Source: Schmidtea nova | Lineage: Eukaryota | Reading direction: 5' to 3' | Assembly: GCA_044892505.1 (NCBI GenBank) | Contig: CM097883.1 | Span: 440,572,001 to 440,636,000 of the forward strand | Length of the DNA stretch: 64,000 nucleotides | In this document: in pieces, positions 1 through 61,721 of the stretch | Numbering within the stretch: position 1 is the first letter of the stretch | Layout: each line of letters starts with the position of its first letter | Notes under the pieces: model-generated | The model's input: only the letters and a program-made list of their open reading frames with translations | Databases searched by the model: none | What the model was told of the DNA's origin: nothing | Translations under genes and position numbers: made by a program

Positions 1-560
1 ATAAGATAAAAGTTGATTGCAGAAAGGCGTTTGAATCAGAAATGATAAGAGAATTCACAAAGATGCTTGATATTTAATTATGTTTTTCGAGTCCATAACA
101 TCACCAAACAAACGGTCAGATAGAAAGACAATTCAGGACAATACGGGAGCTGATAAATGCTACTCTACAGGATAGAAGGAAGACGGACTGGGCAGAGATA
201 TTACCAGAAGTCGAATTCACATTAAATGCAAACAAACAAAAAACGACAGGGAAAAGCCCGGCAGAGATAGTTTTTGGAAAAAAGATTAGCAGGGAAAAAT
301 GGTACGAGTCCAAAGAAATACCGATAAAGGAAGAACTAGAAGAACAAACAAGGAGAAAATTTAATTTAGGAGAAGAAGTGTTAGTAAAATTAGAAACACG
401 CAACAAAAGCCAGGACAGATATGAAGGTCCATACAAAGTGATCGAGAAAGTGCATGACAGACGATACATCTTAAGAAATGAAAATGGTAAAATGGTCGAA
501 AGAAATGTGGAAAAACTTAAAAATTTCTTGAGGAAGTTGGAAGATTTGAGAAATTTTTAA
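1..560 (+). mobile_element. Decayed Ty3/Gypsy LTR retrotransposon, integrase C-terminal half
   Basis: Frame 3 reads KIKVDCRKAFES..REF..*LCFSSP*HHQTNGQIERQFRTI..DWAEILPEVEFTLN..TTGKSPAEIVFG..F.LGEEVLVK..RYEGPYKV. This is an integrase core with a GPY/F motif and two in-frame stops; a purine-rich tract lies at ~530-545. Confidence 0.85.
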
Positions 561-4791: not shown

Positions 4792-7599
4792 ATGATTGAA
4801 TTAGACAAAAAAATTGAAACATCAGTTAATAACTGTAAAATACTACACAAAAGATCCACATTTATTTTACTTGGTTCACGAGCAACAGAAAATGTTCCTG
4901 TGATATTTTTTATTCGAAATTTCAACATAAATGACGATACAAAAATTTTATGGTGTTTTAAAAGAGAAAATAGTTTCATCAAGTAGTTATTAATTTAATT
5001 ATTAAATAATAATTTATTTTAATTATTCAAGACGTAGTGGCAAAAATACCCGAAAATTTGAGTAAGCTTCTTTTTTGCCTAATATTCAAAATAAATTTAC
5101 CATAGAAAGTCATGCAAAAAAATGAACTTAAACAACGAAAAATTTGATAATTTCACTTTCATGTATGATATAAGTTGGTGTCATTATAATGACACTGATA
5201 ACGTACTAGGAACAACTTTTGACGCTGTCATTTTACAAGATTTTGATTGCCTGACGCCAAATAAAATCGCAAAAGTCATTGAGACAGTCAAAGGCGGTGG
5301 ATTGATTATTTTTTTATTGCCCAACATCAATGACATTTCCGAATTAGGCTCGCTATCAATGGTTAATACAATTACCAATACGTTTTTGTGTCGATATATA
5401 TTTTACTTTTGTTTAAGGATTGCCATAAAAAATATCAAACATTCGCTTATAACGATGTCGATTATCGATTTAACTACAGATTCTTTTATTCGCTGATAGA
5501 TTTCCAAGACTGTTTTCTGTTGGATAATAATCTTCAAATTTTACCGATAAATTGGCACCTTACAAAATCTATCAGTGCTATCGACGAGTCTGAAATCGGG
5601 AAAAAAGATAAAAGTCTATTAAAATTAAAAGTACAAACCACAGATTTCCCCCTCTTTTCTATTTGATTCGTTTTTTCAGAAAAAGCTGAAAGTCGAGTAT
5701 AAAAACTGGGAAAATATTATCGATATTTGCGCAACTCGAGATCAAACTCATGCATTGATAAGTTTGATTGGACTGTTTAAATCGAAACCTGAAATAAATA
5801 TGACGATTAGAAAACCGAAATCTAATAGAAATCCATTTCTCGCTATGGTAACGTCTGGTAGAGGTCGCGGTAAATCCGCTCTTTTAGGAATGGCAATTGC
5901 TGTTGGTATTCACAACGGAATGTCGAGGATTTTTGTGACGTCGCCAATCATGGAAAATGTTGTCACGTTGATGCAATTTGTCATTAATGGGCTTGTGAAA
6001 TTCGGCTACGAGGAGAATCGGGATTTCGTTAGGCGTTGCAAACCTATCGAAGGCGTCAAATGTCAGGGAATTGTTGAAATTGAACTGGTGAAACATCGTC
6101 AACGGCAAGTTGTGAGATATTTGTCGCCGAATGATCACAGGAGTTTGGATAAGATCGATTTGTTGTGCATTGATGAAACCGCGGCTATTCCGTTGCCGAT
6201 CGTGAAGAAATTAATGGCGGTCGATTCGGATTTCGTTTTCATGTCGTCAACGATGCACGGATATGAAGGAACTGGCAGGAGTCTTTCTTTGAAATTGATG
6301 AAACAAATTAGGGAGGGGTTTACATCGGATGACAGGAATGGTAGGGTAAATTGTTTGTGTGATCCTGAATAGTTAGAATTTAAACAAATCAAATATAAAT
6401 AATACTATAATTAATTAAAGTCAATTATTTTATTTATTTATAAATAATCTATAATGAGTACTTTCCGGTTATCTCGGCTTCATCAAAAAATGAACAATTT
6501 CAATTTTAAAAATCTTTTTAATCCAATTTATGCAATAAACAACAGAATTATTATTTATTATTATTTTAATAATTATTATTATTTATTATATCATCAAAAA
6601 AATTTCAAAATTTCTATTCCTGCAATATTTTATTTTAAAAAATTGATATTATAAGTTATTAATACTAATAATAATAAATAATAATAATTAAATAATAATA
6701 AAAGATAAATAATTNNNNNNNNNNNNNNNNNNNNNNNNNNNNNNNNNNNNNNNNNNNNNNNNNNNNNNNNNNNNNNNNNNNNNNNNNNNNNNNNNNNNNN
6801 NNNNNNNNNNNNNNNNNNNNNNNNNNNNNNNNNNNNNNNNNNNNNNTAATAATTATAATTAATAATTATAATAATAATTATTATAATAATAAAAATAATA
6901 ATGCTTATTCTGTGGTTTAAAAAGATTTTTAAAATTGAAATTGTTTATTTTTTGATGAGGTCGAGAATACGCTTCTAAATTCCACTACAATAATCATTTT
7001 TTTTAAAGTCACCCAATGGCTGAAATTAAATATTAAAACAAACTATAAATTTATTTATTTTTATTATTTTTTATTTATTATTATAACTATTTTAATTTAT
7101 TTTTATATTTATTTTTGTTATTTTTATTTAGTAGTATTATTAATTTTTTATTATTTTAATTTAATATTATTTTAATTTATTCATTATTATTATTAATATC
7201 AAAAATTGCCATTTATTATTATNNNNNNNNNNNNNNNNNNNNNNNNNNNNNNNNNNNNNNNNNNNNNNNNNNNNNNNNNNNNNNNNNNNNNNNNNNNNNN
7301 NNNNNNNNNNNNNNNNNNNNNNNNNNNNNNNNNNNNNNNNNNNNNNNNNNNNNNNNNNNNNNNNNNNNNNNNNNNNNNNNNNNNNNNNNNNNNNNNNNNN
7401 NNNNNNNNNNNNNNNNNNNNNNNNNNNNNNNNNNNNGGTAAGATTATAGATCAAAATTTCTTTAAATAAGTACACAATATTTCGGCCAAAAATATTGTGT
7501 ACTTGTTTAAAAAAATTTTTGATCTAGTCTTACCATTACGGTAATTATTGATATTAATATTTAAAAAAGATCAAATGTGAAACAAAAAGATAATTATGA

Positions 7600-7687
<88 letters not shown>

Positions 7688-20300: not shown

Positions 20301-23300
20301 TAAAAGTTGAAATCTATATTCTAAAAGTTTACATAGCGGCCATATCCTCCCATGGAAGAATTACGTTCCACTTTAACGCAAAATCACATTACTAATAGGA
20401 TAAAGAAAAGGAGCCATAAAAACTGTTCCTACACAAACGAAAATACAGGGAACCTTAGAAAACTTTAAAATACGCTTCCTTCAAAGAACTTACCTTGAAG
20501 AATTTATAACAAAATACTATCTTAACAAACACTACCACAATATACGCAACAAAAAGAAACGACAGAAACACATTAAAAATAATAACCAAAAGATTTATGA
20601 TTTCCTTTGAAAATTAGAAGCATTTTCAACAAAATACATTTGCATATAGGCATCCGTCCTACTTTTATGACATATGCACCTTTCAAATTACAACTTCGAA
20701 ATCCCCCATTATCAAACATCTTTTTTAATGTTTTTTGCGGTTCTACGACCAGCTGCTTTTGCTTTTCCAAGAACATAGTATATAAACTTACGAGTCTTAA
20801 ATATGAGGAAAAACACAAAACTTTTCGCAACCGTCTTTATGAAGACACTAAAAATAAAATCAGCAAATATTAAGAACACTAAGAAAGTACATAAAATGAT
20901 CCCATCTAAAGATGAAATAAGAAGCCAACTTTTACACAACGGATTTAAAAATTCATAACACAGATTAGCTTCCGAAACTTCTTTTATCAAAAATCACTAA
21001 TCGTCCATTAACACTCAATTCATACAAGATAATTATGTTTAAAGTTTAAAATCAAATTAAATTAAAATTTATCCAATAAAATAATTTTAAAATATAAAAT
21101 AAATAATTAAATTTACTGTATAAGATTAAGTTAATATAACGATTGAAATACACACTGGATAAAAGACAAAAAATTAATAAAAATTATTGAATTGAAAAGT
21201 TGAAATATTTTATTGTGTAACCATTTCAAGAGGCTTCCCAAACTCTGACAATACCAGCAAAGTTGCCATCAAGGCTGAAGTTTTTAATAATTTTGTCTCC
21301 TGTATGAAACCATGACTGATATTCTTTTGCTGATTATCACTGTACTACTAAAATAGAAAAATGACGTTCAATAACATGTTTAGACTTGCTAGCGGTTTTA
21401 CAAAAATGATGTTACTAAATTTGTATGAACTAGGCAGCAAGTTTTCTTATTTATGGTAATTTCAAAAATTTTTATTTTAAACAACGAAACATTAATTCCT
21501 CTAAATTAGTGATACACAACCTGTTTTCAGTAAAGGGTTAATTTAAAAAAATTACTCAACATTTTAATTATTTAGAAATTTTAATTATATTTTCAGTCAT
21601 AATATAAATTATTTATTATTATTATCAATAATTCTCATAATGACTATAGATCAAAATTTTTTTTTATAAACAATAACACAATATTTCGGCACAGCCTTTA
21701 TCAAGTGTGTATAAATACACACTTGATAAAGGCTGTGCCGAAATATTGTGTTATTGTTTATAAAAAAAAAATTTTGATCTATAGTCATCATTATGAGAAT
21801 TATTGATAATAATAATAATAATAATAATAATTGATAATAATTGATAAAGGCTGTACCGAAATATTGTGTACTTAAAAACCAAATAATTTTGATCTATAGT
21901 CATTATGAGAATTATTGATAATAATAATAATATTATTATCAATAATTCTCATAATGACTATAGATCAAAATTTTTTTTTTATAAACAATAACACAATATT
22001 TCGGCACAACCTTTATCAAGTGTGATAAAGGCTGTGCCGAAATATTGTGTTATTGTTTATAAAAAAAAATTTTGATCTATATTCATTATGAGAATTATTG
22101 ATAATAATAATAAAAAAAGATCAAAGGTGAAAAAAGATAATTATGTTATTAATAATAATATATATTTTAATAATAATATATATTTCACTAGTCATAATCG
22201 TTTGGTAACTTTCCCGCCAAACATAAATTAACCATGTTAGCTTCCATAACAAATATAGCAATAACTGAAATGTCGACACAAATATCTCATGCAAGCATTC
22301 GTATCCTTGAATCGAAGTAGACTTAAATATTTTATATTTCTGCACTAAACACGTTGAATATGTTATCAATTATTTGAACAGTTGAAAATAAAAGTAGACT
22401 TAATAAGTTGACTTAAATATTTTATATTTCTGCACTAAACACGTTGAATATGTTATCAATTATTTGAACAGTTGAAAATAAAAGTTCCATTTTAATTAAA
22501 GTTGCTTTTTGGTTTCCAATAAGTCATAAATTTAAATCTATATTAATTGTTATGTTCTAAATTATTAAAACAAATCCAACTATTTAATAATTTATACATA
22601 TATTTCACATATATTTTAAATTATTAAATGACTATTGATTACTTTTCTATAAAAGTTCAATTTATAAAATCGTAGCTTTTAAAAGGTATTCAAATCATAA
22701 AAAAATAAAGTCAAATAAATAAACACGAAAGAAACATTTCTCTCATTTGTATTGTCAATATAAATATATTTTCAATTCTATTAGCGTGTTTCTAAAATTT
22801 TCGTTGACGTACCAAAAAATTCTAATGGATCTCAGAGATTAAAAACATTTTTCTTTATTATTTTTTTTCAAATTTGTCAACAAATCAACTGGACTAATTG
22901 ATATATTTTAACTGCTAACAATTAATTTTAGTATAAAATATTAATTCTTTTTCATTAGTTACAATATATTCTACTATTGCTATTATTGTTAATAGTTAAA
23001 AAACAAACGAAATCCAAATATATATTCTGCGAAATATATTTCTAGAACTTCCATCTCATCATCAGGTGCTATTCAATCAACCAATCCAATATAAATCAAA
23101 TAAATCGATTTTCAAACGAAATAATCATTTTTTTAAAAATTTAAATTATATATTTTATAAAATAACCAAAACATTTAAAATTAATAAATTAATTTTTAAT
23201 TTAAATAAATTAGTCCTAAAAATCATATTCTTTTTTTAATATATTTTTTAAGAATATTTTATAAATATTTTCCATATTTATAAACAACACTATGATTGAA

Positions 23301-32300: not shown

Positions 32301-35300
32301 CGATTTTTCAACAATGCCAAACTATCGTTTACACAGTTAGAGGAAGCCTTTGAACTGAGGAAATAAAATATTTCTCCTTCATCACATGTTCTTGCAGATC
32401 ACTTGGACTACCCCAGCCCACGTTGCAAGCTTCCATACATGATACTCTATTATCAAGGATTAAAATAAATCAGCGACTAAAGCAGCTTTGGTAGTATACA
32501 TCACTGAATGTCATTTCGATATTTAATTATGGACCAAGATAACCAAGTCGCAGACTGCTTATTTAGAGAAACAGATGAAGAGAACACGATTCACACAATA
32601 TCAATTTAGCAGAACTAATAAAATATCATAAAGACAAATCTTCCTCGGACTTGATCAAATAAACCTCTCTTATACCTAAGAAACCGAAGATGTAATATTG
32701 ATTGATACAACATCAAATGTAACTCAAATCATCCTGCCAGAAATTTTCCAAATTCAAAAATTTAAAAGGTTACATAACATGTGTCATCCAAGAACCCTTG
32801 CAACCATCAGGCTAATAAAATCACAATATTTGTGGCCAAGGATTTACTTTTGTGACCAGAACACAAATTCGAAAATAGTGTAGACCAGCGGTTCTCAAAC
32901 TTTTAAAATTTTTTCGATAGCTAGCGGAACCCTTAGTCAGTTATATATTATAAATAAATATGCTTTCGTTTTTCGCGGTCCTACCGAAACTGGCTTCGTG
33001 GCCCCTACTTTGAGAACCTCTGGCGTAGACAGTCTAAGCAATGCCAGAAAAATAAAATAACCAGCATACCAAATCAAAATTTGTAGTTCATAGAGATATT
33101 ATAATAACGCTTCCGCTTGTCAACAACAAACGACCAATTATTTGAAGAAAAAAAACATTTCACACCACAAGGCAGTGTTTGGAACTCACATAATTTTGTC
33201 TGGAGATATCATCATCAAAAAGAGAGAAAATAGAATTAAACAGAAAAACTTTCCAAGGATCTGATTACGCGTAAGCTACGTATGCATGATAGTAGATAAA
33301 AGAACAGCACTTCAACTAATGTATTCAAAGTTTTCAGTGGAAGCGAGGATCTATAGACCAGTGTTTCCCAATGTTGGCCCACGCGCCACAAGGGGGTAAT
33401 AATTGAAAATATATAAAACAAGCAAAAAAAATTTAAGGACTGGCGAAATGAATAAAATGCCTGATGGGTAAAAATGAAACATCAACAAATTTCAACTTAA
33501 ATTTAAAAATTACACACAACAAATACCTTAATTTGTTCTATTCATTCTTATGAATAGAAACAAAATCTAACTAACAGTTTACAAAAACTATCAATCGTTT
33601 TTTGTGATGAAGAAAAATAAAACTTTTTATGTAATGTGTATGTATAAAATTTATACATAATATATTAAACGTAATATAAAATCCCTTTGCAGCAAGCATC
33701 AAGCTCAAGGCTCTCACTGAATTTAAATAAAAATTGGTTTTTAATAATTATGATAAATAATATGTATGTAGTTTTAATGATAAAATTAGTTGTTTTTCCT
33801 TTAATTCCCGGTAAAAATTTGACAGAATGCATAAATGAATCTCACATTGGACATAGGAATTTTAGAAAGATTTTTTTTGGTAACGACACGAAAATTGTCG
33901 GGAAACACTGCTCTAGACAGAGTTAAGTAGCCGATCATTATTTAGGATATATATTTTAAATATAAATTATTTACTTATATGTAATAGAATAAATGTAATT
34001 TTGTTTATAATTGTTAAATGTAATAAAATATACTTTTTCAAATTGTAAGTTTTACATGAAAAACAGCACATCACATATATTCTGTATAATAATTATATAC
34101 TTTTGGTAATACTTATAATATTTTATTATACGTGTCATCTAATTTCATATTACACTTTGTAACAAATATATCGATAACATTGTAGAATTAGATGGCAGAC
34201 TTTTTTCAACTGTATGAGAATGCATATATCAATAAAGATATAACAATTCACTTAATTCGGATGATGCGACGGATAAATAATAGCATATAATAGAAAATTA
34301 GGCAAAGAAATTTATTATTGGTTACTATTCAGAAATATTTTTAAAGATTTGAACAATACAATAAGTTTAAATAGTGCCCCTGGGCTGTGCTGCAAATTTG
34401 TTAAATAATAGGTTGGGAATTTGTAAGTCTGGGAAAAAATTTGGTTTGTAGAAAACTGTAGGTAAACGTTCCAATAGTCTGCAGATTGTAAAAGATAAAC
34501 GTCATATTTCTCGTTATCAGGCGAAAAAGAAAAGCAAAGAGGAATAGTTATTAATATTTAAAATTATTATAGAAAATATGTGCCATAATTTAATAATTAT
34601 ACCTTATATTGAAGTAACAACATTAGACGCAATAGAAACTCATGAACTAAATCAATTTCGACTTTCCGGGTTTCCGGAACTGTCCCGATTTCAACAGACA
34701 TATTCCTTGTCCCGAATTGACTCTGAAAATTCCGACGTAACAAAATTTGTATATGTACAAAAATTTACATATATTGTTAAAAAGTCTCGCTTAATTTTTG
34801 CAGATAGCCTGGCGTACGGCATTTTATAAATNNNNNNNNNNNNNNNNNNNNNNNNNNNNNNNNNNNNNNNNNNNNNNNNNNNNNNNNNNNNNNNNNNNNN
34901 NNNNNNNNNNNNNNNNNNNNNNNNNNNNNNNNNNNNNNNNNNNNNNNNNNNNNNNNNNNNNNNNNNNNNNNNNNNNNNNNNNNNNNNNNNNNNNNNNNNN
35001 NNNNNNNNNNNNNNNNNNNNNNNNNNNNNNNNNNNNNNNNNNNNNNNNNNNNNNNNNNNNNNNNNNNNNNNNNNNNNNNNNNNNNNNNNNNNNNNNNNNN
35101 NNNNNNNNNNNNNNNNNNNNNNNNNNNNNNNNNNNNNNNNNNNNNNNNNNNNNNNNNNNNNNNNNNNNNNNNNNNNNNNNNNNNNNNNNNNNNNCACCTT
35201 TGATTTTTTTTATTATTATTATCAATAATTCACATAATGATGACTATAGATCAAAATTTTTTTTATAACACAATATTTCGACACAATCTTTATTTTGAGA

Positions 35301-38300: not shown

Positions 38301-41300
38301 CTTTGTCCATTGCAACTCGAGATGAAAAAGCTTGGGCTCCCTCGTATCTCAAAAAACTCACACGTAAGGGCACTCGTATGTCGAGGTACCACAATACAGT
38401 GGTTCCAGTCCTTTCTAAAGTCACGCCACACTTAATAATCGTAATTTTCCCATTACTTTAATATTTATATTTTTTTTAAATATCCAATTTTTATCAGTTA
38501 ACTAGTACAACAATATGCGATGACTGAATAATACAAATAAACTACAATATCAACAGAATGTAATTCCAGCATTTAGCATGGCTTCACAACTCAATTAACT
38601 GTATATAATAAATTCCCTTTGCATACCCAATGGTCAACTTATCATTTATGACAGAGGTTCCCAAACTGTGGGTCGCGACCCAAAAGTGGGTCGCCAATCT
38701 CTGGCAAGTGGGTCGCGAAAGTTTTTAGGAAAACATAACTTTTTTCGTCTTTTATTTCAGTAACACGCAAATTTCATACTTTATTCCGGTATAACTAGCG
38801 GAACAACAACATTTGACTATGATTGGGCCATAACTAGCTTCTACTTGTTAGTGTATATGAACAGTAAATAGTGCACGAACTTTGCAAGGCAGGATTATAA
38901 AAAACATCTGCTATTAAATATGAACCAAATATTAAATAGTTGAACCAGCATCATTGTCCGTCTCTGACTCTGAGCTATGACCACTCACACATGAGAAAGA
39001 TTTGCGTTTTCGTTTCAAAAATTTATCCATATTTATTTTTCTTTAAACTTGACAGTATAAATATTAGTTAAACTGTTATAACACTGTTAAAACTGTTGCT
39101 TTTGCATTGAAATAAATTTTTTACTGTTTTCCTAAGTTTCAATTTTATGTTTTAAATGTACTAATTTCTAAAGTTTCTAAACGCTGTCTGTAAATCGGAA
39201 TATTTTAACCCAATTTATGAGATATTACTGAGTACTCGATGCATAATTTTATTCAGTGGGTCCCGAGATGTCAAAAATATTTCCAAGTGGGTCCAGAGCC
39301 AAAGAAGTTTGGGAACCTCTGATTTATGTAACCACAATTAATCACAAATTAGAAGGTGAAGCATCCAATTATCAGCTTTTAATACTTCATTTATTGAGCT
39401 TGGTTTTATTTCATTTTTATCTCATTGCATCCTTGCAAATCACTCAATTTTCTTTCATTAGCAAAATATTCAGCGTTTTTCTCTAACAAATTTAGAGTTC
39501 TTTTAGAAATCTAAAATTCCATGTATTTTCCCAGTTTACCTTGCTACTCTGGAAACTTCTTTCCTTGATCATAATACAGCAATAAATATCAATTATTTTG
39601 ATCAAGGATTATTTAAACCAGGAATGAGCAAACTGCCCGTCAATGATTTGGACGCAAGTCCATTTTTGTTTATTATGATTGTTATGTTCTGATGTCCGAA
39701 ACAACACAATAATTATGAGAGTTAAGGCTGAACTATCACATTACAAATACATGACAGCTTTGTTTTAAAAAGTGTTTTTAAAAAGTATGTAACTCTACTC
39801 TACAAGAAAATCGGGTGTTTTTAATAAAGTTTTCCCTACGGTTTCTTATTAGTGATGGTTCGATATGACAGTATAGATAATTTATAACCAATATCACCTG
39901 GTCAGATAGTAGAGGATTAATCTAAGGAAAGATAATAAATGAGTTTTAAATGTTTATAAAAGTGATTAAATCAACCTCTCTATTTAGGAAGGGCTTTGAA
40001 ATATATAAAGAGGGGGAAGAGTAACGAACACCAATAAAATAAATAAAAGATTTAACATTTCAAAATCAAACCTGGGAGAAGCGCCTCTAATATCAAGCAC
40101 GGAACGGGGTACAGCATATATAATTAATGCTATCAATGTAAAATACGTGTCAATACGGTGAGTTGTGCTGATGCGGCCCACTTTGCATAGATCAGATACC
40201 AATGCAGCCCACCCCTGATCTACACTATACAAACATACGCTATAATTATTTTACAATTAAAGGTGAAATATCAATTTGTGATTTGCTATAAACCTCATGT
40301 ACAATTGTATTTGAAAATAGTTTCTTCCACTTTCCTTTAAATAATTAATTTTCATATGAATTGTAATAAATTTGGACTTCGAAACCAGATTTTCTTCATT
40401 ATTGTAGCTATAATTATCTGTTTAATTAAAAGATATGATATTCATTATATTCTACTTTTTAAGGCGTTAATGGATGATGGAGAAAAGGGTCACAGCCATA
40501 ATGGACATAATAAAATGGTTTGGAAATCGTTAGTCGCGTTAATTGGAATTCATCTATTCTTCCTTACTGAAAGAATCACAATTCTTTATCAAAATCTGAG
40601 ATCTAAAAGAAAGTCCAAAAAGCAACACGTAAAATTTTCTCATTTTAATATACATTTTTGTGTGCAAAATATTTTACCAAAGCACTCAATTTAGTTTATT
40701 TTCATTTTTTTCAAACAATAGATCAAAATAATTTTTAAACAGTTAATATTACCGTTACTTTTTCAAATGCTTATTTTAAACACTTGAAAAAGGCAGTGTC
40801 GAAATATTGTGTTAAATAGGAGAATAAATCCTTTATCATAATCCGTGTCACTTGTTATATACGGAAACAATAGAAATGTAATAGTTATGGTTTAATGGGT
40901 TAATTAAATAATCTCAATATATTCTTTGCTGATTGTAGGGGATTGTGATTTAAACGCTAAAAACTCGCACAAAATTCTTTATCAATTATTATTAAAGTTC
41001 TTATAATTTTTTTAAAATCTGTTGTCCATTTACACATTTTCCTATGCTAACCAATATTACTCACACCTTTCAATCAGCTTTGTTATTAAACCCGGAGGTA
41101 AGAACAAGTCTCTCCAATGTTTATAAATTGCACCAATTACATGAAAAATTATACACTAAATCAGAATTATAACCTATTTGAGATTGAGATTTATTCCTAA
41201 ACATTACTAATACTTGTAAAGATTTCGAAACTATTTGAAATATATTAGAATTACCGAAACATTTCATCACAGAAAACTTAAAATTTTAAAACCTTTCGAA

Positions 41301-43079: not shown

Positions 43080-46000
43080 TTATTATTATTAATATCAATA
43101 ATTCCCATAATGGGTGACTATAGATTAAAATTTCTGTAAATAAGTACACAATATTTCGGCACAGCATTTATCAAGTGTAATACACACTTGATAAAGGCGG
43201 TGCCGAAATATTGTGTACTTATTTAAAGAAATCTTGATCTATAGTCATCCATTATGGGAATTATTGATATCAATAATAAAAAAAGGTCAAAACTGAAATA
43301 AAAAGANNNNNNNNNNNNNNNNNNNNNNNNNNNNNNNNNNNNNNNNNNNNNNNNNNNNNNNNNNNNNNNNNNNNNNNNNNNNNNNNNNNNNNNNNNNNNN
43401 NNNNNNNNNNNNNNNNNNNNNNNNNNNNNNNNNNNNNNNNNNNNNNNNNNNNNNNNNNNNNNNNNNNNNNNNNNNNNNNNNNNNNNNNNNNNNNNNNNNN
43501 NNNNNNNNNNNNNNNNNNTTGTAGACTGCTTTATTTACAAATCAATAATAACTCTTGTAACTATTGGATTAATTCATTCCAACTCTTATAAATGTCGTAT
43601 TAATTTGTACTTCTACGATTTAAACAGATGTTGATTATAAATTAAATCTGAAATTTGTCAAATAATTTTAGGCAAATATTGGTGCTCATTTGTGTAATCG
43701 CCCGAAAAGCAAGCCCCACGTCAATAGCGACTGTCCAGACTCAATGAATTGTAAGTTTAATATTTTAATCCATTTATTGCATTGATCTGCATGTCGCAAC
43801 TATTTTTTATCAGTCTGATTTTTCGTTTTACTATTTATCAATCATGTTCTTAATTATTTATTGACTTTCCTATCGTTTTTTTACTTGTAACATAAAATAT
43901 ATTTATCAAGTAAAATAAATTTGGTAAAATAGGTAAATATTCTAGATTGTGCAAATAAAATGTTGCTAATCATTTTCAAGGATGTGCCATGGTTTCGAAG
44001 GTTTTATAATAAAGCGATTGTCACATAACAAAATCTAACAACATTATTCAACCGTATTCCGAATCCTAATATTTGCAAATACTTTATCTATACTATTAAA
44101 CATTAGACATTGTTAGAGATATTTAATTAACTAATTTATAAATAACATATTGTATTATAAGTAATCAATTTTATTATATAGTCAAATTATAATAAGTATA
44201 AATGCTGGCACGCATAATTGTCGTTATTATTTAATTCATTAATTCGCCATTTTAAATTTGTTCGAATAAGACAAATTATTACGGAAGCAGTTTTTATTTG
44301 AATATAATTTAACAACAACAAATCTTTAATTATTAACAGACATATTAAAAACGCAAGATTTCCAAAGCTCTATACAATAAAATGTACATTAACGTTTTGA
44401 CCAAAATTAAAATTTTTAAGCAAATAACAAAATTGTTTTATATTTTTTACATTAAATAATTACACTTTTTATTTACCTACGAGAACACAATCAATGAATT
44501 CTGAATGTAAAATGCCGACTGCTTGCATTGCCAACTCGAATGTTATACAAATCACATAAATTTAAACTAATTTTGTTGGATGTATATGTCAGTGGTTCTC
44601 AGCCATTTTAAGATTACGACATCCTTATATTAATTATGATAAATTCATATTTTTATCATTTCAGATTTAAAAAAAAACAATCAATGACGCAGAATTGTTC
44701 TTTTAAAATTACTCCGTATAGCCAGCTCAATGTTAACTATAAATAATGAAGAAAACAAAGGAATAAATAAATTTGTTGAGTTTTTTGTTGAGTTCGTAGT
44801 ACCCCGGTTGAGAACCACTGGTATATATTATTAAAATAATTGATTTATTATTTACTATTTTTATAATCAACAATTTTTGTCGATCCATTTTCAGGCTTNN
44901 NNNNNNNNNNNNNNNNNNNNNNNNNNNNNNNNNNNNNNNNNNNNNNNNNNNNNNNNNNNNNNNNNNNNNNNNNNNNNNNNNNNNNNNNNNNNNNNNNNNN
45001 NNNNNNNNNNNNNNNNNNNNNNNNNNNNNNNNNNNNNNNNNNNNNNNNNNNNNNNNNNNNNNNNNNNNNNNNNNNNNNNNNNNNNNNNNTAGCAGCATTA
45101 AGTATTAAATTAATTAATAAATAAGTAACAAAATAAGCCTTTGCTGCAAAAATAATTTTATTAAATGAGAAAATTATTTTTCCAGCNNNNNNNNNNNNNN
45201 NNNNNNNNNNNNNNNNNNNNNNNNNNNNNNNNNNNNNNNNNNNNNNNNNNNNNNNNNNNNNNNNNNNNNNNNNNNNNNNNNNNNNNNNNNNNNNNNNNNN
45301 NNNNNNNNNNNNNNNNNNNNNNNNNNNNNNNNNNNNNNNNNNNNNNNNNNNNNNNNNNNNNNNNNNNNNNNNNNNNNNNNNNNNNNNNNNNNNNNNNNNN
45401 NNNNNNNNNNNNNNNNNNNNNNNNNNNNNNNNNNNNNNNNNNNNNNNNNNNNNNNNNNNNNTTTGATCTTTTTTTATTATTATTATCAATAATTCTCATA
45501 ATGACTATAGATCAAAATTTTTTTTTATAAACAATAACACAATATTTCGGCACAGCCTTTATCAAGTGTGTATTTCTATCGTTATATTTACTTAATCCTA
45601 AATAGTAGCCTTAATTATTTTTTTAATATTTTATAATGATTTTATTGGATGAAAAAATTTATTTTAATTTTTTTGTGCGAATTGAATGTTGATGGACGGT
45701 TTGTATTTTTTTATGAAAAAAGTCTCGGAAGCTAATCTTTGTAATGAATTTTTGAATCCCTCTTGTAGGATCTGGCATTTTGTTTCTTCTATAGATGGAG
45801 TTGTTTTATGTACTTTTTCCCAGTGTTCGTAATAATTACTGGTTTTGATTTTAGTATGTTCATTAAGTCGGGTGCGAAAAGTTCTATGTGTTTCTCCTAT
45901 GTAAGTAGCGTCACATTTTTGAAAAGAAAGTTTATATACTATATTTTTGGAAAAGCAAAAGCATCGGGTTGTGGAACGGCAAAGACATTTATGTTTGGAG

Positions 46001-49000
46001 ATGTTGGAAATTGGTGGCTTTCGGAGTTGTGATTTTAACGGTGCGGAGGTTATGAATGTTGGACGGATGTGGATAGGCAAATCTGTTTGATTAAAAATGT
46101 TGGTGATTTTGTTGGCTGTAGTGTCATTTAGGAAAGGTAATCTTAGATATGTTGTGTGTTTGTTATTGTTATTGTGTTTCTGGCGTTTTCTATTGTTGCG
46201 TTTATTGTGGTATGGTTCGTTAAGGAAGTGTTTCTTTACAAATTTTGATCTATAGTCATTATGAGAATTATTGATAATAATAATAATTATTATTATTAAT
46301 ACTACTATTATTACTACTATTATTATACTACTCAAAAGTATAACCGTCAAAAATGGCAGACATTTGTTTAAATGTCAATTAAAATCCTGAATTCCGTGAT
46401 GCATTTAACTCCCAAAGACAATATTTATATATAACACACAGTCCATACGAAAAATGTTTTTTACTTTGAGATCGGAGCACAATCTATAAATTGAATTTTT
46501 TTAAATCAGATTATTTTTAATTCAATATTATTTAATATAATACATTATTATTATGATGATGANNNNNNNNNNNNNNNNNNNNNNNNNNNNNNNNNNNNNN
46601 NNNNNNNNNNNNNNNNNNNNNNNNNNNNNNNNNNNNNNNNNNNNNNNNNNNNNNNNNNNNNNNNNNNNNNNNNNNNNNNNNNNNNNNNNNNNNNNNNNNN
46701 NNNNNNNNNNNNNNNNNNNNNNNNNNNNNNNNNNNNNNNNNNNNNNNNNNNNNNNNNNNNNNNNNNNNNNNNNNNNNNNNNNNNNNNNNNNNNNNNNNNN
46801 NNNNNNNNNNNNNNNNNNNNNNNNNNNNNNNNNNNNNNNNNNNNNNNNNNNNNNNNNNNNNNNNNNNNNNNNNNNNNNNNNNNNNNNNNNNNNNNNNNNN
46901 NNNNNNNNNNNNNNNNNNNNNNNNNNNNNNNNNNNNNNNNNNNNNNNNNNNNNNNNNNNNNNNNNNNNNNNNNNNNNNNNNNNNNNNNNNNNNNNNNNNN
47001 NNNNNNNNNNNNNNNNNNNNNNNNNNNNNNNNNNNNNNNNNNNNNNNNNNNNNNNNNNNNNNNNNNNNNNNNNNNNNNNNNNNNNNNNNNNNNNNNNNNN
47101 NNNNNNNNNNNNNNNNNNNNNNNNNNNNNNNNNNNNNNNNNNNNNNNNNNNNNNNNNNNNNNNNNNNNNNNNNNNNNNNNNNNNNNNNNNNNNNNNNNNN
47201 NNNNNNNNNNNNNNNNNNNNNNNNNNNNNNNNNNNNNNNNNNNNNNNNNNNNNNNNNNNNNNNNNNNNNNNNNNNNNNNNNNNNNNNNNNNNNNNNNNNN
47301 NNNNNNNNNNNNNNNNNNNNNNNNNNNNNNNNNNNNNNNNNNNNNNNNNNNNNNNNNNNNNNNNNNNNNNNNNNNNNNNNNNNNNNNNNNNNNNNNNNNN
47401 NNNNNNNNNNNNNNNNNNNNNNNTATTTATTATTTTTAATTAAAATTTTTTATTGATACATAATTGACAAACGAATTCTAGATGAGTTGTGTAACACAAT
47501 TAATCCTTATTCAATGAATCCAGAAACAAATGGATGTAATGCAATCAATTCTGACATACGAGTGCAAACCAACGGGGAAATCAAAACAGTTCAGCCAATC
47601 GAGGAAAGCAAACCGAGCTACTTATTAACTGATCGGCAGTTAGCAAATATTAACAATATCAACAGTTCGTGCGCCCAGAATGAAACTAGCAATTGGTCAA
47701 ATAAAGAAGACCACAAACTACTTTCACCACAAATTCCCGCAGAATCCAATATTAATAATGTTGAGGTTATTTACTAATTATTTTCTACAATATAATAATA
47801 ATCTTTAGTATTAACTAGATTATTTTTTACCATAATTCGTATTTATTTGTATGTAAAAACCTCTATGCTCATATATTCCCAAGCTCTTTTTGATATATTT
47901 CATCCAATTGAACTTGACTCTTTTAATATATTTTTTTCTTTTCTATGTTTACCACAAATCAATATTCCGAAAAGCTTTTTTCGCTGCCTACCTAAAGGTA
48001 AACCTTGCTAGTTTGGCCCAAGTTAGCTTTTGAGTTTGACACCCTTGGTGTAGGAGATAGATCAACAAAACTGTTTAAAATTCTGATCTTGCTATTTTGT
48101 ACAAAAACAAGAAAAATAAAGATTTTTAATACTTTATCAAATAAAAATTAACTATTGTTTTTACGATTTTTTATCTATGATTTTACGCTATGGATCAATA
48201 TTTTTAATTGTTTTACACAGATTTTCTTTTTTTTGTGATCTTTATTTAGACATAAACCATCTGGATATTTGGTAAAGCCAGGAGAACCGGAGTAGCGTAG
48301 AATTTTTACATTCGCGATTTGGTAAAAATGTAAATTGGCTAACCTATTCTTTATTCAATAACATTCTCATAGTTTCCCGATATTCGTCAGGCGAAAAGTT
48401 GCAATTGTTGTTATTATTTATAACATGATCCTCGTAAAAGCAACAAAAGACTACGCAGTTGTATCCATCTTTTTGTTGTAGGAAACTGTCTTTCGTAATT
48501 GTAAAATCACTTCCAACTCGTATGAGCTCAGTTAATTTTTTTACTTCTGCTAATTGATTTTGACCTTGTGGATCATATTGCAATATTTCAGAGGTTGCTA
48601 TGTTGACCTGAAATGCAATCTGGAAGTTTTGAACATTTTTAAATGGGGTGTAAAAATTCTACCCCGTAAAAGAGATGCTTATATGGGCGGAAATTTCAAC
48701 TGTACATGTGTTAGGACCGTTAAACCATACATCTAAAAGCATTCGGTCCGTCATGCTCTATATCACGTCATATCAAAAAAAGAAAAATTTTCACCAACCC
48801 AAAGTTGAGGTTAACAATCTCTAAAACACCATGGCAAACCAGATATTTTGTCTAAAAACTTGCTACCTTGCTATATACATTTTGTACTTTTTTAATCAAA
48901 CACAAATGTTCAAAATATGACAACGATGTTTGTTATAATCTAAATTGTATACAAGTATTTTCTCACAAAAAACAGCTACCAAATCGCCAATGTAAAAATT

Positions 49001-52000
49001 CTACAGCGTAGTAAAAATTCTACGCTACACCGGTTTTATTATTTTGGATAGGAAAAATATGTTGGTTTTATTTCCATCTATTATTGTCAGTATCATTGCT
49101 CATTCAGCTGAAGATTGATTTGCAAAGTTTAAAGGCCAAACATGAAATTTTGGTACACCTCATAAAATCTTTCCAAGGACCCCCCAAATTTAAAGACCTT
49201 CCTTATATCCCCTAAAATATATTTGACTTCTCCCAACCTTTTTTAAATTTCTTGATTTTTCGCTGATTTCCTTAATGGATTTACAAGATTTGTAGATTGT
49301 TCGATTCGGAATTACTTATCCTACAAGTTGACATAAAAAAAGTTGACATCTTTAAAACATTTTTATTTTTATTTTTATTTTCACCTTCAACTTTTTCTAT
49401 TCGAAATAATCAAGTCGACAATTTAAGCATGTTAGATGTTTTAGAAAGTATTTTATTAAAATTCAATAAGTAGTAAATTTATTAATAAAAACCTGAATTG
49501 TGTGAATTAATTAGATTAATGCCTGTCAACAGCGGAAAAGATGAGGTAATGGTGAAAACTGTACCAAATAATAAATTGTTTTGATTGTTTATCATGACAG
49601 ATGGAAGAATTATAGATACGGAATGTTAGAAAGTCAGATGGAAGTTACAAATAGACGANNNNNNNNNNNNNNNNNNNNNNNNNNNNNNNNNNNNNNNNNN
49701 NNNNNNNNNNNNNNNNNNNNNNNNNNNNNNNNNNNNNNNNNNNNNNNNNNNNNNNNNNNNNNNNNNNNNNNNNNNNNNNNNNNNNNNNNNNNNNNNNNNN
49801 NNNNNNNNNAAAACTAACTAAATCAACTAGGTTCACTAAGTCAAAAAACATAGTTTTTAGTAAATCGATATTTAAGAAGTTTGTGTATCTGAAGGTAGTA
49901 TTCGGTTTTTTGACAATGTAACTATTATTAAATTCAGTTGTATTTTTGCCTTTGGAAAATTATATAATAAGTGTACATGCTAAATTTATCGAATAATAGT
50001 TTAAATATAGCGATTATTACGAAAAGCTTTTCCTTTTTACTCTTTTTCCTTTTTTTCTTTTCATTATTCCTTTTACTATTTTACTTTTTCCTTCTTTTGT
50101 ATTTTGTATTTGATTATTTGAATATACAAGTTAAATTTATTGACTAATAGTTATATTAAATTTTTATTTAATTTTTTTTGAATATTTTTGTAACATTTTG
50201 ATGCTAACTTTTAGAGTACATGTTTCAGAATCAAACTAAATCCAGCAAGCGAAACAGTGGAAAATTAAAAAAAATTACAGGGGTCAATTTATTTAGGGAG
50301 GTTTACCAAAAATTTCACTCACTCACTCACTCACACACACACACATATATATATATAAAAAGGATGTATTAGAAACTTCTAATAAATTTTTTTTTGAGAA
50401 GGATTGAGATTTCTTTGCAATAATTTAAAAATTTATGATGGTACTTTGTATAAAATGGATCAGCCAAGATCTTTGATGCAAGGCCTCTAGGTTCCAGCTA
50501 CTTAACTTTACTCTTTGCAATTGATTTTTGCGTCCGTGTAGACTTAAATGTTTTCATGGAGCAAATAAAGTTCTAATTTTCAGCTTTTGTCTTAATTTAC
50601 TGATCATATTGTTATAGGAATTTAAGTTTATTATGCACTCAATGAAATCTGTCTTCAAAATATTTTTGAAATTCTAGACCGTCCTCAACATTACACATTC
50701 ATGATTTGAAATCCCTCAATGGAATTCTTTCAAGACATCTTTAAAATTTATACAAATATATAACATAAATTCTAANNNNNNNNNNNNNNNNNNNNNNNNN
50801 NNNNNNNNNNNNNNNNNNNNNNNNNNNNNNNNNNNNNNNNNNNNNNNNNNNNNNNNNNNNNNNNNNNNNNNNNNNNNNNNNNNNNNNNNNNNNNNNNNNN
50901 NNNNNNNCCTTTGATCTTTTTTTATTATTATTATCAATAATTCTCATAATGACTATAGATCAAATTTTTTTTATAAACAATAACACAATATTTCGGCACA
51001 GCCTTTATCAAGTGTGTATTTCAATATATATATATATATATATATACGTTTATATGTATTATTTGTCTCATTATTTTTGTAATACAAAGAATAAAATAGT
51101 TTTTCTTTTCGTTTAATTATACAAATTTAGTGGAAACGTTTTGGGGTTCCGCAACAAAATAAGTTTGAGATCGCTGCATTAAATTAATTATTCCTTAATT
51201 ATTTTCTTTCTCTAGGTAAAATATCAAATTTCTTAAGTTTTGTTAATCGTCTATTTGTAACTTCCATCTGACTTTCTAACATTCCGTATCTATAATTCTT
51301 CCATCTGTCATGATAAACAATCAAAACAACAATTTATTATTTGGTACAGTTTTCACCATTACCTCATCTTTTCCGCTGTTGACAGGCATTAATCTAATTA
51401 ATTCACACAATTCAGGTTTTTATTAATAAATTTACTACTTATTGAATTTTAATAAGTCAATTTTTGAGTTTTTGTTGAGGGCTTCATTTATCCAGCACAA
51501 TAGCTATTGAGTATGACTTTTTACCGAGAATTTACCGTGCAGATGAAGTATGGCTGTTCTTATGATACGGTAGATTGTATTGGTAACTGTAAATCACGAT
51601 TTTCTTTTCATTATTATTTATTGTACCAATTTGGAATATTTCCCATTGAAATTTATTCTCCATAAACTAGGTGAAAACTGTTAGTACAAAACATTCTGAC
51701 CACATAGAACGATTAGAAATTGGAGCCGGTGGAGCGACAGTTAAATCGAGTTTAGCCCATCCGTTTAAAAACAAACCTCACGGTCATCATCATGGGCATA
51801 GTCATGATTTGAGTAGTGTTAAAGCGATCGCATACACAGTCATTGCCGGAGACGGACTTCATAATTTCTGTGACGGAATAGCAATCGGAGCGGCATTTGC
51901 AAATGACATTGGAGGTGGCTTATCAACTGCTATAGCGGTCCTCTGTCATGAATTACCCCACGAACTTGGTAATAATTTAGTCCTCCTATCGGTCAAATGT

Positions 52001-56245: not shown

Positions 56246-56287
56246 AATAACACAATATTTCGGCACAGCCTTTATCAAGTGTGTATT
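56246..56287 (-). ncRNA. Hammerhead-like motif in the 3' pseudo-LTR (U3-A8)
   Basis: Exact reverse complement of 61583-61624. Confidence 0.7.
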
Positions 56288-56376
56288 TCTATCGTTATAT
56301 TTACTTAATCCTAAATAGTAGCCTTAATTATTTTTTTAATATTTTATAATGATTTTATTGGATGAAAAAATTTATT

Positions 56377-58974
56377 TTAATTTTTTTGTGCGAATTGAAT
56401 GTTGATGGACGGTTTGTATTTTTTTATGAAAAAATTCTCGGAAGCTAATCTTTGTAATGAATTTTTGAATCCCTCTTGTAGGATCTGGCATTTTGTTTCT
56501 TCTATAGATGGAGTTGTTTTATGTACTTTTTCCCAGTGTTCGTAATAATTACTGGTTTTGATTTTAGTATGTTCATTAAGTCGGGTGCGAAAAGTTCTAT
56601 GTGTTTCTCCTATGTAAGTAGCGTCACATTTTTGACAAGAAAGTTTATATACTATATTTTTGGAAAAGCAAAAGCATCGGGTTGTGGAACGACAAAGACA
56701 TTTATGTTTGGAGATGTTGGAAATTGGTGGCTTTCGGAGTTGTGATTTTAACGGTGCGGAGGTTATGAACGTTGGACGGATGTGGATAGGCAAATCTGTT
56801 TGATTAAAAATGTTGGTGATTTTGTTGGCTGTAGTGTCATTTAGGAAAGGTAATCTTAGATATGTTGTGTGTTTGTTATTGTTATTGTGTTTCTGGCGTT
56901 TTCTATTGTTGCGTTTATTGTGGTATGGTTCGTTGAGAAAGTGTTTCTTTACAAAGTCTTCAGGGTATCCATTTTGGAGGAATCGTATTTTGAAGTTTTC
57001 TAATGTTTCTTGTATTTTGTTTGCGTCTGAACAGTTTCTTATGGCTCTTTTTCTTTCTCCTATTAGTAATGCGATTTTGCGTTGAAGTGGAACGTGGCTT
57101 TTCCATGGGAGGATATGACCGCTATGTAAACCTTTAGAATATAGCTCGGTGTTTGCATTTAGTGTATCTTGGCCTTTTGTGAAACTTACCATGGTATCTA
57201 AAAACGGTATTTTACCTTCTGTGTTCGGTGTTTCAAAAGTGAATTGTATGTTGGTGTTAGTAGAATTTGCGTGTGATAGGATTTGATTGAGAGGGATTGT
57301 GGAGACTATGAAGATGTCGTCGATGTATCGTTTCCAGAAAAGTATTTTTTCCCCAAAAAAAGATATGATCTTAGATTCTATAAAGTTCATGTAGAAGATG
57401 GCTAAGATGGGAGAAAGGTTATTACCCATGGCTAATCCATGAATTTGTTTGAATGGTTTTTCTTTTATTATGACAGTATCTGAATTTATTGCTAATTTTA
57501 GAAGTTCTATAAAGTCTTGTTTAGTTAAGTCTGCGAGGTCTGTATTGGTTTTATGAGTTTCAAAGAAAGAAGCTGCGATATCGAAAATGTTATTCTCTCC
57601 GTGAAGAGGAATAGATCCGTAAAGATTGGAAACGTCAAGAGATCCCCAGAAGTACTGTTGTCCTGAGTTTAACGGAAGAGACGTATTTGTAATTTCGGAG
57701 ACGAATTCAGTTGTGTTTTTAAGATGAGAAGGAACCAAAGGCAAAAGTGTTTTTAGAATTTCTGAAAGAACTTTAGAAAGTGTTGTGGAAGGAGTGTCAA
57801 CTGCAGATACAAGAGGTCTGCCTTTTAAAGGACTTTTGTGATCTTTAGGTAACATAGTCATATTACTAGGTAAAGGCTCACTGCAGTTGCATTTTAAAAG
57901 TAAATCTTTGATTTGAAGGTTAATTTGTTTATTTGCAAGTGTTGAAAGTTTCTTATTGTATAAAATCTGAGTCGATGCAGGTAAGATTATTTTGTTTATC
58001 GGTTCATAGTTCGAGAGATGTTCTTCAAATAGAGTATTGTATTGTTCTGTGTCAAGAGCAATTAGTCGATTTGTTTTATCTGATGGAAGAATTGTGAAGT
58101 CTTTGGAATTCTTAATTTTCTTTATGTTTGAAGTGAAAGAATTTTGTGTTGAGCAATGTTTTTCAAGAAAGATAATTTGTTCTCTGACTAAAGTTTTGAC
58201 TTTAGTTTCTAAACAGCTGATTTTTTCTTCAAGTTCAGTCGAAAAGACAGGCATATTTGGATATGTTCTACGATTTGGATCCAGAAGATGATTGTGCTTT
58301 TCAGCTAAACTTGAAGATTTGGTGGATGAAATTGGTTTTAGATGGTATCCTATTTGTCTTCTTAGGCTTATAAGAGAGGCGTTAGTGATGATTTCGGCTT
58401 TTTCTAAATCTTTCTGGTTAGGTGGAGGAACAAAAGATGGTCCTAGAGCGAGGATGTTTTCTTGTGTTTTTGAAAAAATGTGATTAGATTTGTTTGTAAA
58501 TGGAAGAATTGAATTTGAGTGTGAGTTAGTGTCTTTAGTGTTGTTTGAATTTGTTGAAAGTAGCTTTTCTAATTTTTTATGCTTGCGAATGTCGAGATTT
58601 TTGGAGAAATTCTGGCAACAAGTATTATCTTCACAAGTAAGAGGAGCACAAGGAAAACTAGTAAATTCGTTTAGCTTTTTGTAACAAGCTGAAATGCTAA
58701 GCTTAAGCCATTCTTTTTCCTGTTTTTCCTTAAGCTTCAATGCTTGTAAAGATGGATAGGTTGATTCCAGTTTGTTGGTAACAGTCAGGCCCACGGGAAT
58801 GATGTTTCTTCTTTTGCATTCTTTTAAAAAATGTAAGTGTGATTTGATTTTGATGATTTTGAGACTATAAAATAACGATAGATCTACTCGGTGATGGGCG
58901 TCCGCCAATATACTATCATAATTATCTTTTTTCACCTTTGATCTTTTTTTATTATTATTATCAATAATTCTCAT
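56377..58974 (-). CDS. PLE reverse transcriptase + GIY-YIG endonuclease, intact 865 aa
   Basis: LALGPSF, ILPSDKTN, LPKDHK..GRPLVS, SLDVSNLYGSIP, GLAMGNNLSPILA, WKRYIDDIF, IPFLD, NGYP, CLC..CFC linker, NIVYKLSCQKCDATYIGETHR..RLNEH..H..E..I..KPSIN. Confidence 0.95.
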   Translation of the reverse strand: MRIIDNNNKKRSKVKKDNYDSILADAHHRVDLSLFYSLKIIKIKSHLHFLKECKRRNIIPVGLTVTNKLESTYPSLQALKLKEKQEKEWLKLSISACYKKLNEFTSFPCAPLTCEDNTCCQNFSKNLDIRKHKKLEKLLSTNSNNTKDTNSHSNSILPFTNKSNHIFSKTQENILALGPSFVPPPNQKDLEKAEIITNASLISLRRQIGYHLKPISSTKSSSLAEKHNHLLDPNRRTYPNMPVFSTELEEKISCLETKVKTLVREQIIFLEKHCSTQNSFTSNIKKIKNSKDFTILPSDKTNRLIALDTEQYNTLFEEHLSNYEPINKIILPASTQILYNKKLSTLANKQINLQIKDLLLKCNCSEPLPSNMTMLPKDHKSPLKGRPLVSAVDTPSTTLSKVLSEILKTLLPLVPSHLKNTTEFVSEITNTSLPLNSGQQYFWGSLDVSNLYGSIPLHGENNIFDIAASFFETHKTNTDLADLTKQDFIELLKLAINSDTVIIKEKPFKQIHGLAMGNNLSPILAIFYMNFIESKIISFFGEKILFWKRYIDDIFIVSTIPLNQILSHANSTNTNIQFTFETPNTEGKIPFLDTMVSFTKGQDTLNANTELYSKGLHSGHILPWKSHVPLQRKIALLIGERKRAIRNCSDANKIQETLENFKIRFLQNGYPEDFVKKHFLNEPYHNKRNNRKRQKHNNNNKHTTYLRLPFLNDTTANKITNIFNQTDLPIHIRPTFITSAPLKSQLRKPPISNISKHKCLCRSTTRCFCFSKNIVYKLSCQKCDATYIGETHRTFRTRLNEHTKIKTSNYYEHWEKVHKTTPSIEETKCQILQEGFKNSLQRLASENFFIKKYKPSINIQFAQKN

Positions 58975-59006
58975 AATGACTATAGATCAAAATTTTTTTT
59001 ATAAAC

Positions 59007-59048
59007 AATAACACAATATTTCGGCACAGCCTTTATCAAGTGTGTATT
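59007..59048 (-). ncRNA. Hammerhead-like motif in the 5' pseudo-LTR (U3-A8)
   Basis: Exact reverse complement of 61583-61624; the partner copy is at 56246-56287. Confidence 0.7.
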
Positions 59049-59129
59049 TCTATCGTTATATTTACTTAATCCTAAATAGTAGCCTTAATTATTTTTTTAA
59101 TATTTTATTTTTTTAATATTTTACAAGCA

Positions 59130-61493: not shown

Positions 61494-61582
61494 AATAAAT
61501 TTTTTCATCCAATAAAATCATTATAAAATATTAAAAAAATAATTAAGGCTACTATTTAGGATTAAGTAAATATAACGATAGA

Positions 61583-61624
61583 AATACACACTTGATAAAG
61601 GCTGTGCCGAAATATTGTGTTATT
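61583..61624 (+). ncRNA. Minimal type I hammerhead-ribozyme-like motif, U3-A8 variant
   Basis: AAUA(C)ACAC-UUGAUAA-A-GGC/UGU/GCC-GAAA-UA-U-U-GUGUUAUU. It has an 8-bp stem I with a bulge, a 3-bp stem II and a palindromic AUAU stem III, and sits in a PLE pseudo-LTR where such ribozymes are known to occur. Confidence 0.7.
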
Positions 61625-61716
61625 GTTTATAAAAAAAATTTTGATCTATAGTCATTATGAGAATTATTGATAATAATAATAAAAAAAGATCAAAGGTGAA
61701 AAAAGATAATTATGAT

Positions 61717-61721
61717 ATTAT

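Follow-up and report, generated by a model that had tools for sequence, protein, structure and literature searches.

Short copies of a Penelope-like element in Schmidtea nova start at the outer edge of a predicted hammerhead ribozyme

Within the window, the 64,000-nucleotide stretch of Schmidtea nova DNA analysed here, five pieces of about 90-125 bp lie next to each other at 21613-22145 in the orientation - + + - +. A preliminary description read them as pseudo-LTR fragments with a hammerhead ribozyme, and noted that short copies across the window tend to start at or inside this motif. Why do they start there? The folded ribozyme could stop the reverse transcriptase (RT), a short ribozyme RNA could be mobile by itself, or the template RNA could end at this place. 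Positions in the element are numbered from the first base 3' of the predicted cut, which is 0 and corresponds to 61617 in the plus-strand copy. The coordinates of the features are collected in Table 1.

Table 1. Copies, junctions and motifs of the element in the window; signed numbers are element positions relative to the predicted cut
Feature	Position	Strand	Remarks
Mini palindrome, head-to-head, ends -11/-7	7437..7605		4-base palindromic centre (7486/7490); tail followed by (TTA)n
Piece 1, pLTR stub, -33 to ~+70	21613..21712	-	minimal hammerhead complete; young subfamily
Junction of pieces 1 and 2	21712/21713		head-to-head, blunt
Piece 2, pLTR stub, -35 to ~+69	21713..21812	+	hammerhead complete; 3 extra bases near +35
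AAT run and 10-base repeat of the +56..+65 motif	21813..21840	+	target tract or abortive restart
Piece 3, solo stub, -25 to ~+66	21841..21930	+	diverged subfamily; lacks stem I 5' arm
Candidate 12-bp target-site duplication	left 21922..21933, right 22150..22161		low complexity
Piece 4, pLTR stub, -30 to ~+65	~21934..22024	-	hammerhead with G-U pair in stem II
Junction of pieces 4 and 5			head-to-head, 2-base overlap
Piece 5, pLTR stub with tail, -24 to ~+102	22023..22145	+	lacks stem I 5' arm and U3
Solo stub from -22	35195..35293	-	
Degenerate hammerhead-only fragment, start near -30	40779..40814	+	absent from the preliminary description
Mini palindrome, head-to-head, ends -29/-34	43080..43306		diverged subfamily; in (ATT)n tract; ends at 43178/43179
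Truncated copy (ends -702, minus strand) and inverted stub starting +19	45462..46286		overlap of 3 bases
Solo stub from -36	50908..51022	-	5' flank (TA)n
Intact 865-aa ORF, RT and C-terminal GIY-YIG endonuclease	56377..58974	-	upstream pLTR begins 59108 (-94)
5'-truncated inverted copy	59120..61721	+	head-to-head with intact element; ends +105 in (TTA)n tract
5'-junction peak in read contigs, -36 to -34	61581..61583	+	inferred RNA 5' end
Reference minimal type I hammerhead	61583..61624	+	predicted cut 61616/61617

The parent element

The five pieces were confirmed; they are stubs derived from the pseudo-LTR (pLTR) of a Penelope-like element (PLE) in the same window. Pfam matched RVT_1 in the 865-aa ORF of its intact copy (E-value of 9e-08) and made no GIY-YIG call on this query itself. 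PF01541 was called on two of 27 homologues, and the VYxxxCxxCxxxYIG motif is kept in the alignment of the ORF homologues. The pLTR of the intact element repeats the first 20 codons of the ORF. A 5'-truncated copy lies head-to-head with it (56210-59108 on the minus strand joined to 59120-61721 on the plus strand), and the long arms are 100% identical over 2541 bp. At the junction of these two copies (59089-59123) we observed a 16-bp tandem duplication that resembles RT slippage. A single ORF with RT and GIY-YIG domains, a pLTR overlapping the ORF start, an optional tail and an inverted truncated 5' copy identify an EN+ PLE, and the pair at 56210-61721 matches the usual build of endonuclease-positive PLEs as described in PMC8557442.

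Three traits of the Hydra clade are present: DKT (D299-K300-T301), a CxCx5C linker (C759-x-C761-x5-C767) and a unit of 2761 bp, below 3 kb. CCHH, which should be absent from that clade, is present as well (C780, C783, H802, H813), and the expected RWK was not seen in the ORF. Because CCHH is retained alongside the Hydra-like DKT and linker, we do not assign the element to Hydra.

The hammerhead motif

A descriptor search found the core, the stems and helix III of a hammerhead, in agreement with the earlier identification of the motif. The reference copy consists of a stem I 5' arm (61583-61591), a U3-A8 core (61592-61598), an extra A, a 3-bp stem II, GAAA and a palindromic 4-base helix III. 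It thus has the features of a minimal type I PLE hammerhead (3-8 pair, extra base, G10.1-C11.1, GAAA, palindromic helix III, UH and helix I), and its predicted cut triplet ends in U. The descriptor matched ten family members and three stray cores in the window; shuffled sequences gave 0-2 matches each. Rfam did not match a hammerhead at its gathering score, and a search of metagenome contigs with an exact family pattern gave 0 matches. The same design, with altered pairs, was found at four of 21 related loci (C3-G8 in L001 and L002, U3-A8 in L007 and L017). These 21 loci provided ribozyme variants, but no stub series was found in them.

Metazoan PLE minimal hammerheads (Cervera and De la Pena 2014, PMC4209133) share with this motif the U3-A8 pair, the extra base before stem II, G10.1-C11.1 and the palindromic helix III, whereas a stem II of just 3 bp sets the present one apart. 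As here, that paper describes numerous single motifs as well as pairs on opposite strands, 100-700 bp apart, so that the U3-A8 variant, the extra base and the paired arrangement are already in print.

Short copies and their 5' ends in the window

The locus at 21613-22145 records at least three events: piece 3, which differs by 16% from the intact element, is older, and the palindromes of pieces 1/2 and 4/5 were added next to it later. The low-complexity 12-bp duplication suggests that the 4/5 palindrome may have inserted into the (AAT)n end of piece 3. Stubs elsewhere in the window also have ATT, AAT or TA tracts as targets. The earlier claim that copies pile up in AAT/ATT tracts is borne out.

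We then compared all 5' ends in the window, except those of a copy at 14591 that is bounded by N gaps. Ten of the 17 ends, from seven of 11 insertions, fall within one 15-nt span from -36 to -22. Two others lie at -11 and -7, one at +19 and four at -94 or beyond (-94, -702, -891 and -2497). Under a smooth geometric decay with a mean length of 50 nt beyond the detection limit, P for the cluster in the window is 0.011 and 0.025, and with a mean of 100 nt it is at most 0.0013. P rises to 0.16-0.18 if the mean is 30 nt. As such a steep smooth decay still fits the window ends alone, read contigs were needed for the test.

Three subfamilies are involved in the mini palindromes, whose arms differ in sequence and at both ends. 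The two arms of 43080-43306 are each other's nearest neighbours, and a private motif is common to both arms of 7437-7605. Young stubs differ from the intact element by one or two changes per ~64 columns. They have no private change in common and track the intact element. The diverged stub subfamilies have no long form within the window.

A three-base peak in read contigs

Contigs of four of nine public runs were aligned to 59120-61725, a reference that lies outside 21613-22145. Runs X1-X3 are from one study, whose kind is unrecorded and which may include the source of the assembly; X5 is from a second study. The junction figures rest on 20 of the 2621 loose-end rows, not picked strictly by count, and on 15 of the 251 joints, and are hence lower bounds. 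Loose 5' ends at 61581-61583 made up at least 329 of 2880 partly aligned records in X1, at least 204 of 1370 in X2 and at least 211 of 1860 in X3. A uniform distribution predicts 0.7-1.1 at these three bases, which makes the excess at least ~260-300-fold in X1-X3. The flanks of the peak junctions are unrelated, with an agreement of 0.40-0.43 compared to 0.38-0.41 for random window flanks.

Summed depth, which is not equivalent to copy number, is flat over 61435-61580 in the AT-rich 3' UTR and then reaches 2.8-3.9 times that level at 61639. By the same measure, the pLTR is in strong excess over the ORF. In X5, which had 28 records, the depth step is similar (11-fold) and at least two loose ends lie at 61585. 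The peak could be exaggerated by diverged subfamilies whose similarity begins only at the ribozyme, although there was no such case among the 12 short copies of the window that were examined.

A smooth decay of breakpoints without a peak at the motif was therefore not seen, the three-base peak being present in all three of X1-X3. Both in the window and in these contigs, 5' ends cluster at the outer edge of stem I, as the preliminary description had proposed for the stem I boundary. Its wider statement that this spot acts like a stop or hand-over point also stands, in that 5' ends concentrate there.

Two of the joints listed involve the same region. In X1, at least two contigs link 61721 to 61582, connecting the tail end to exactly -35 in a head-to-tail 140-nt unit. 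An opposite-strand joint between the two stem I arms (61588/61623) has a depth of 1134 in X1 and occurs in X2 and X3 as well; stem I may have guided a multi-copy fold-back here. That the palindromes themselves are fold-backs from assembly or amplification is highly improbable. The window does contain 18 N gaps, many at element copies, and the identical long arms at 56-61 kb may be collapsed. However, the arms of the mini palindromes differ in sequence and ends and belong to three subfamilies, and the 5' peak recurs in three runs.

A probable fixed 5' end of the template RNA

We infer that template RNAs share a fixed start near -35, most probably because transcription begins at this place inside the pLTR. 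Synthesis passes through the entire motif and halts shortly beyond it, where nothing stable is predicted to fold (-1.4 kcal/mol upstream of -36), so a template end near -35 is the simplest cause. We consider it somewhat better than an even chance that reverse transcription is initiated internally, at about +65 or +105, and runs off this fixed RNA end, probably the transcription start, and that paired cDNAs join head-to-head. The element's own RT would start inside the element, at the pLTR-ORF junction, 100-140 nt from the RNA 5' end. It would halt on reaching the end near -35, like retroviral strong-stop DNA, and a long copy would require a jump to a second copy of the same repeat. Most events would fail and integrate as stubs, often minus 0-14 bases. 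If both target strands of (ATT)n were nicked and primed, two cDNAs would be joined head-to-head, producing the palindromes. The ribozyme would mark the boundary only by being the first thing in the RNA.

Parallels for these steps have been described in other PLEs. In the anole element, two internal RT start sites define the tail, both strands are nicked and extended at ATT, the template RNA is uncut, and templates shortened at the 5' end yield shorter products (PMC11167929). Transcription starts inside the pLTR in Penelope (PMC2377424) and in Chlamys-3 (PMC8557442). Penelope of D. virilis speaks against the present reading, in that its start lies ~120 nt upstream of helix I and it is the 3' end of an intron that coincides with helix I (PMC4209133, PMC2377424).

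The X1 joint from 61721 to 61582 fits a restart at +105 following run-off at -35. The head-to-head pairs fit priming on two strands, as diverged arms share a subfamily, their ends differ and two of four mini junctions are blunt. Other observations speak against run-off. No recognisable initiator was found at -36, and since the upstream pLTR of the intact element extends to -94, synthesis sometimes continues beyond -35. Of the clustered ends in the window, half (-30 to -22) fall short of the peak by 5-14 nt. Finally, in the one palindrome of a second hammerhead-like family, both arms start more than 230 nt upstream of the core.

The 3' ends of the copies fall at two places, in line with the two internal RT start sites of the anole element (PMC11167929). 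Six copies end at +62 to +70 and three complete ones have a tail to +102 to +105; four further tailed copies are cut by N gaps. Tail ends are followed by (TTA)n in all three window cases and in at least 45 X1 contigs. Short ends are followed by AAT, which is partly trivial since the element itself has three AAT at that place. There is a tentative hint that the choice of RT start depends on the strand, the 4/5 palindrome being ambiguous.

Other origins of the boundary

The preliminary description took the folded ribozyme for a strong stop to the RT. This part of its explanation agrees poorly with the position of the ends. An RT coming from +65 or +105 approaches the ribozyme from its 3' side and meets the 3' arm of stem I first, and if the structure blocked it, 5' ends would be expected near +7 (stops at +7 to +13). 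The observed ends instead lie beyond the 5' arm of stem I, upstream of a ribozyme that has already been copied, and none in the window is at the cut; both a road-block and self-cleavage therefore fit poorly. In addition, the predicted hammerhead fold is weak (-7.7 kcal/mol, z -0.66). Two monomers (-6.3 each) are together predicted to be more stable than a modelled catalytic dimer (-7.2), and a stronger rod competes with the hammerhead, being predicted from -17 to +122 at -28.7 kcal/mol (z -3.3, for a span picked after seeing the fold). A stop at the folded hammerhead, perhaps dimeric or protein-bound, would agree with a peak at the outer base of stem I and with the two ends in stem II or the core (-11 and -7), and the palindromic helix III would allow dimers, but we regard it as very improbable. 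The predicted rod (58893-59031 on the minus strand) places both RT start regions in or beside loops and buries the 3' half of the ribozyme, and is a candidate for a switch and RT-binding structure.

Self-cleavage was rejected as the source of the 5' ends, as none of the 17 in the window is at the predicted cut. Capture of a spliced leader or an exon was likewise rejected, because the junctions carry no common sequence.

The RNA end near -35 might also arise by processing, at a splice or trans-splice acceptor or through a 5'-to-3' exonuclease halted at the base of stem I or by a bound protein, in which case the fold would set the boundary indirectly. An AG at -37/-36 lies just 5' of the modal end at -35, and stem I is predicted to be extendable to -39. 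The intron of D. virilis ends at helix I too, and locus L017 (545-610) resembles it in having a branch-like motif, a T run and an AG directly 5' of helix I. Then again, L001, L002 and L007 have no AG directly before helix I, and an AG-less variant makes up 11-41% of the depth at 61580. No usable donor was evident by eye upstream in the 3' UTR. The loose ends share no leader or exon, and neither do the window junctions at -34, -35 and -36. Processing seems unlikely to us.

A boundary made on DNA is less probable again. Here, the GIY-YIG endonuclease would cut cDNA or donor at the ATT opposite -34 to -32, or a cDNA end would anneal to an AAT overhang of the target. The anole enzyme favours ATT and cuts its own pLTR junction (PMC11167929), and the ends at -35, -7, +19 and -94 all start with AAAT or nearly so. 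Yet 26 AAT, ATA or TAA sites lie between -129 and -44, where depth stays level without further loss, which speaks for run-off. No AAT is found at the ends from -30 to -22, and the blunt mini junctions also argue against such an origin.

Compatible with run-off is the other idea in the preliminary description, that a short ribozyme RNA is itself mobile. Stubs from -36 or -35 would keep an internal promoter and both RT starts, so that a 140-nt unit could be recopied in a SINE-like or retrozyme-like manner. The head-to-tail joint in X1, the depth excess of the pLTR and the diverged stub subfamilies that have no long form in the window point in this direction. The Penelope promoter is internal (PMC2377424), and retrozymes have been proposed to derive from pLTRs (bioRxiv 10.64898/2026.07.22.740005). 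Young stubs, however, follow the intact element, ends vary, and the 5' arm of stem I is missing from two of the five pieces (3 and 5). The window contains no tandem array of complete ribozymes either. We therefore give a mobile 140-nt unit only a modest chance.

A possible strong-stop cycle

Run-off could be part of a complete replication cycle, which we put forward tentatively and at less than even confidence. The RNA would carry a terminal repeat spanning -35 to +105; the RT would start at its 5' copy, and after run-off it would have to jump to the 3' copy. A dimeric enzyme would prime both (ATT)n strands, with the primer sequence selecting +65 or +105. If true, this scheme would account for how pseudo-LTRs are renewed, why the tail is one-sided, how head-to-head repeats form and why solo minimal hammerheads are so abundant in animal genomes; retrozymes could then have originated from the 140-nt product.

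Minus-strand strong-stop DNA of LTR elements has an internal start, runs off the RNA 5' end and is transferred via the terminal repeat. In L1 twin priming, one target site supplies two primers. The primer proposed here differs from that of LTR elements in being nicked target DNA instead of a tRNA. Unlike in twin priming, both arms repeat the same sequence rather than adjoining segments.

Comparison with published elements

Insertions of EN+ PLEs (Arkhipova 2013, PMC3846280; Craig 2021, PMC8557442) resemble the present ones in their head-to-head inverted 5' stubs, solo pLTRs, frequent 5' truncation, mostly one-sided tails of 30-40 bp and AT-rich microsatellite targets. As described in these sources, truncation is variable; here, 5' ends peak within three bases, and both arms are only 90-140 bp long. 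Palindromic junctions have been explained by self-priming on an antisense RNA template (Arkhipova 2013, PMC3846280). This predicts a symmetric centre, whereas only the 7486/7490 junction has one and the others are asymmetric or blunt.

Poseidon of Anolis carolinensis, studied in vitro (Frangieh 2024, PMC11167929), likewise has two tail-defining RT starts with a hammerhead just upstream of them. Its ATT cut on both strands and its uncut RNA template parallel the run-off reading. According to the main text of that paper, genomic 5' ends were not mapped and start use is equal between strands, in contrast to the tentative strand-dependence here. For PLE hammerheads in general, cleavage and circular templates have been proposed (PMC4209133). 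The position of the ends, at -35 and not at the cut, speaks for mostly linear, uncut templates here.

Non-LTR retrozymes (Cervera 2020, PMC7229834; bioRxiv 10.64898/2026.07.22.740005) are also short, non-coding and pLTR-related, with a type I hammerhead. In these, units of 150-450 bp, each with a complete ribozyme, are repeated head-to-tail (PMC7229834); the copies in the window are 90-140 bp, solo or head-to-head, and often have a clipped ribozyme. Two or more head-to-tail units with complete hammerheads, as in a retrozyme, were not found: in the sole direct pair, pieces 2 and 3, the second motif is clipped. The exception, among the joints listed, is the 140-nt head-to-tail joint in X1.

Inverted pLTR stubs, tails, solo pLTRs, ATT targeting and pLTR-derived retrozymes are already published. 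In the open-access literature, we found no report of a sharp 5'-end peak just upstream of an uncut ribozyme; Fig. S2 of PMC11167929 plots genomic ends and may bear on novelty. The PLE literature lists pseudo-LTR renewal, the origin of head-to-head repeats and the role of the hammerhead as open questions. The position of the 5'-end peak separates the models, as a circular template predicts no peak, a cut template a peak at 0, a road-block one near +7 and run-off one at the RNA start. These models can be tested at low cost, given the compact, intact ORF and the hundreds of junctions available.

Other features of the window and related loci

The second hammerhead-like family consists of inverted arms at 22991-23302 and 23512-23823 (87% identity over 318 bp). 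It has canonical C3-G8 cores at 23065 (minus strand) and 23747 (plus strand) with a poor stem I, and the spacer within 22991-23823 partly resembles a PLE endonuclease remnant near 12000-12284. An old copy of a related element, 74% identical, lies at 20314-21190, and its hammerhead seems to have an A-rich insert of ~31 nt in loop II. At locus L016, a 137-bp palindrome (1231-1367) is located at the end, downstream of the ORF.

The window is AT-rich and contains short-intron genes and several transposon remnants. A divergent NAT10 gene with many short introns occupies ~4850-10740, and one long intron holds the 7437-7605 mini palindrome and (ATT)n tracts. We identified a hAT remnant at 12398-12895 (plus strand) and a DDE transposase fragment at 62135-62929 (minus strand), which we take to be mariner-like. 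The ORF at 99-560 (plus strand), which has no Pfam hit, is presumably integrase-like. Finally, a near-perfect 90-bp tandem duplication that is not related to the element lies at 22315-22485, 170 bp to the right of the five-piece cluster.
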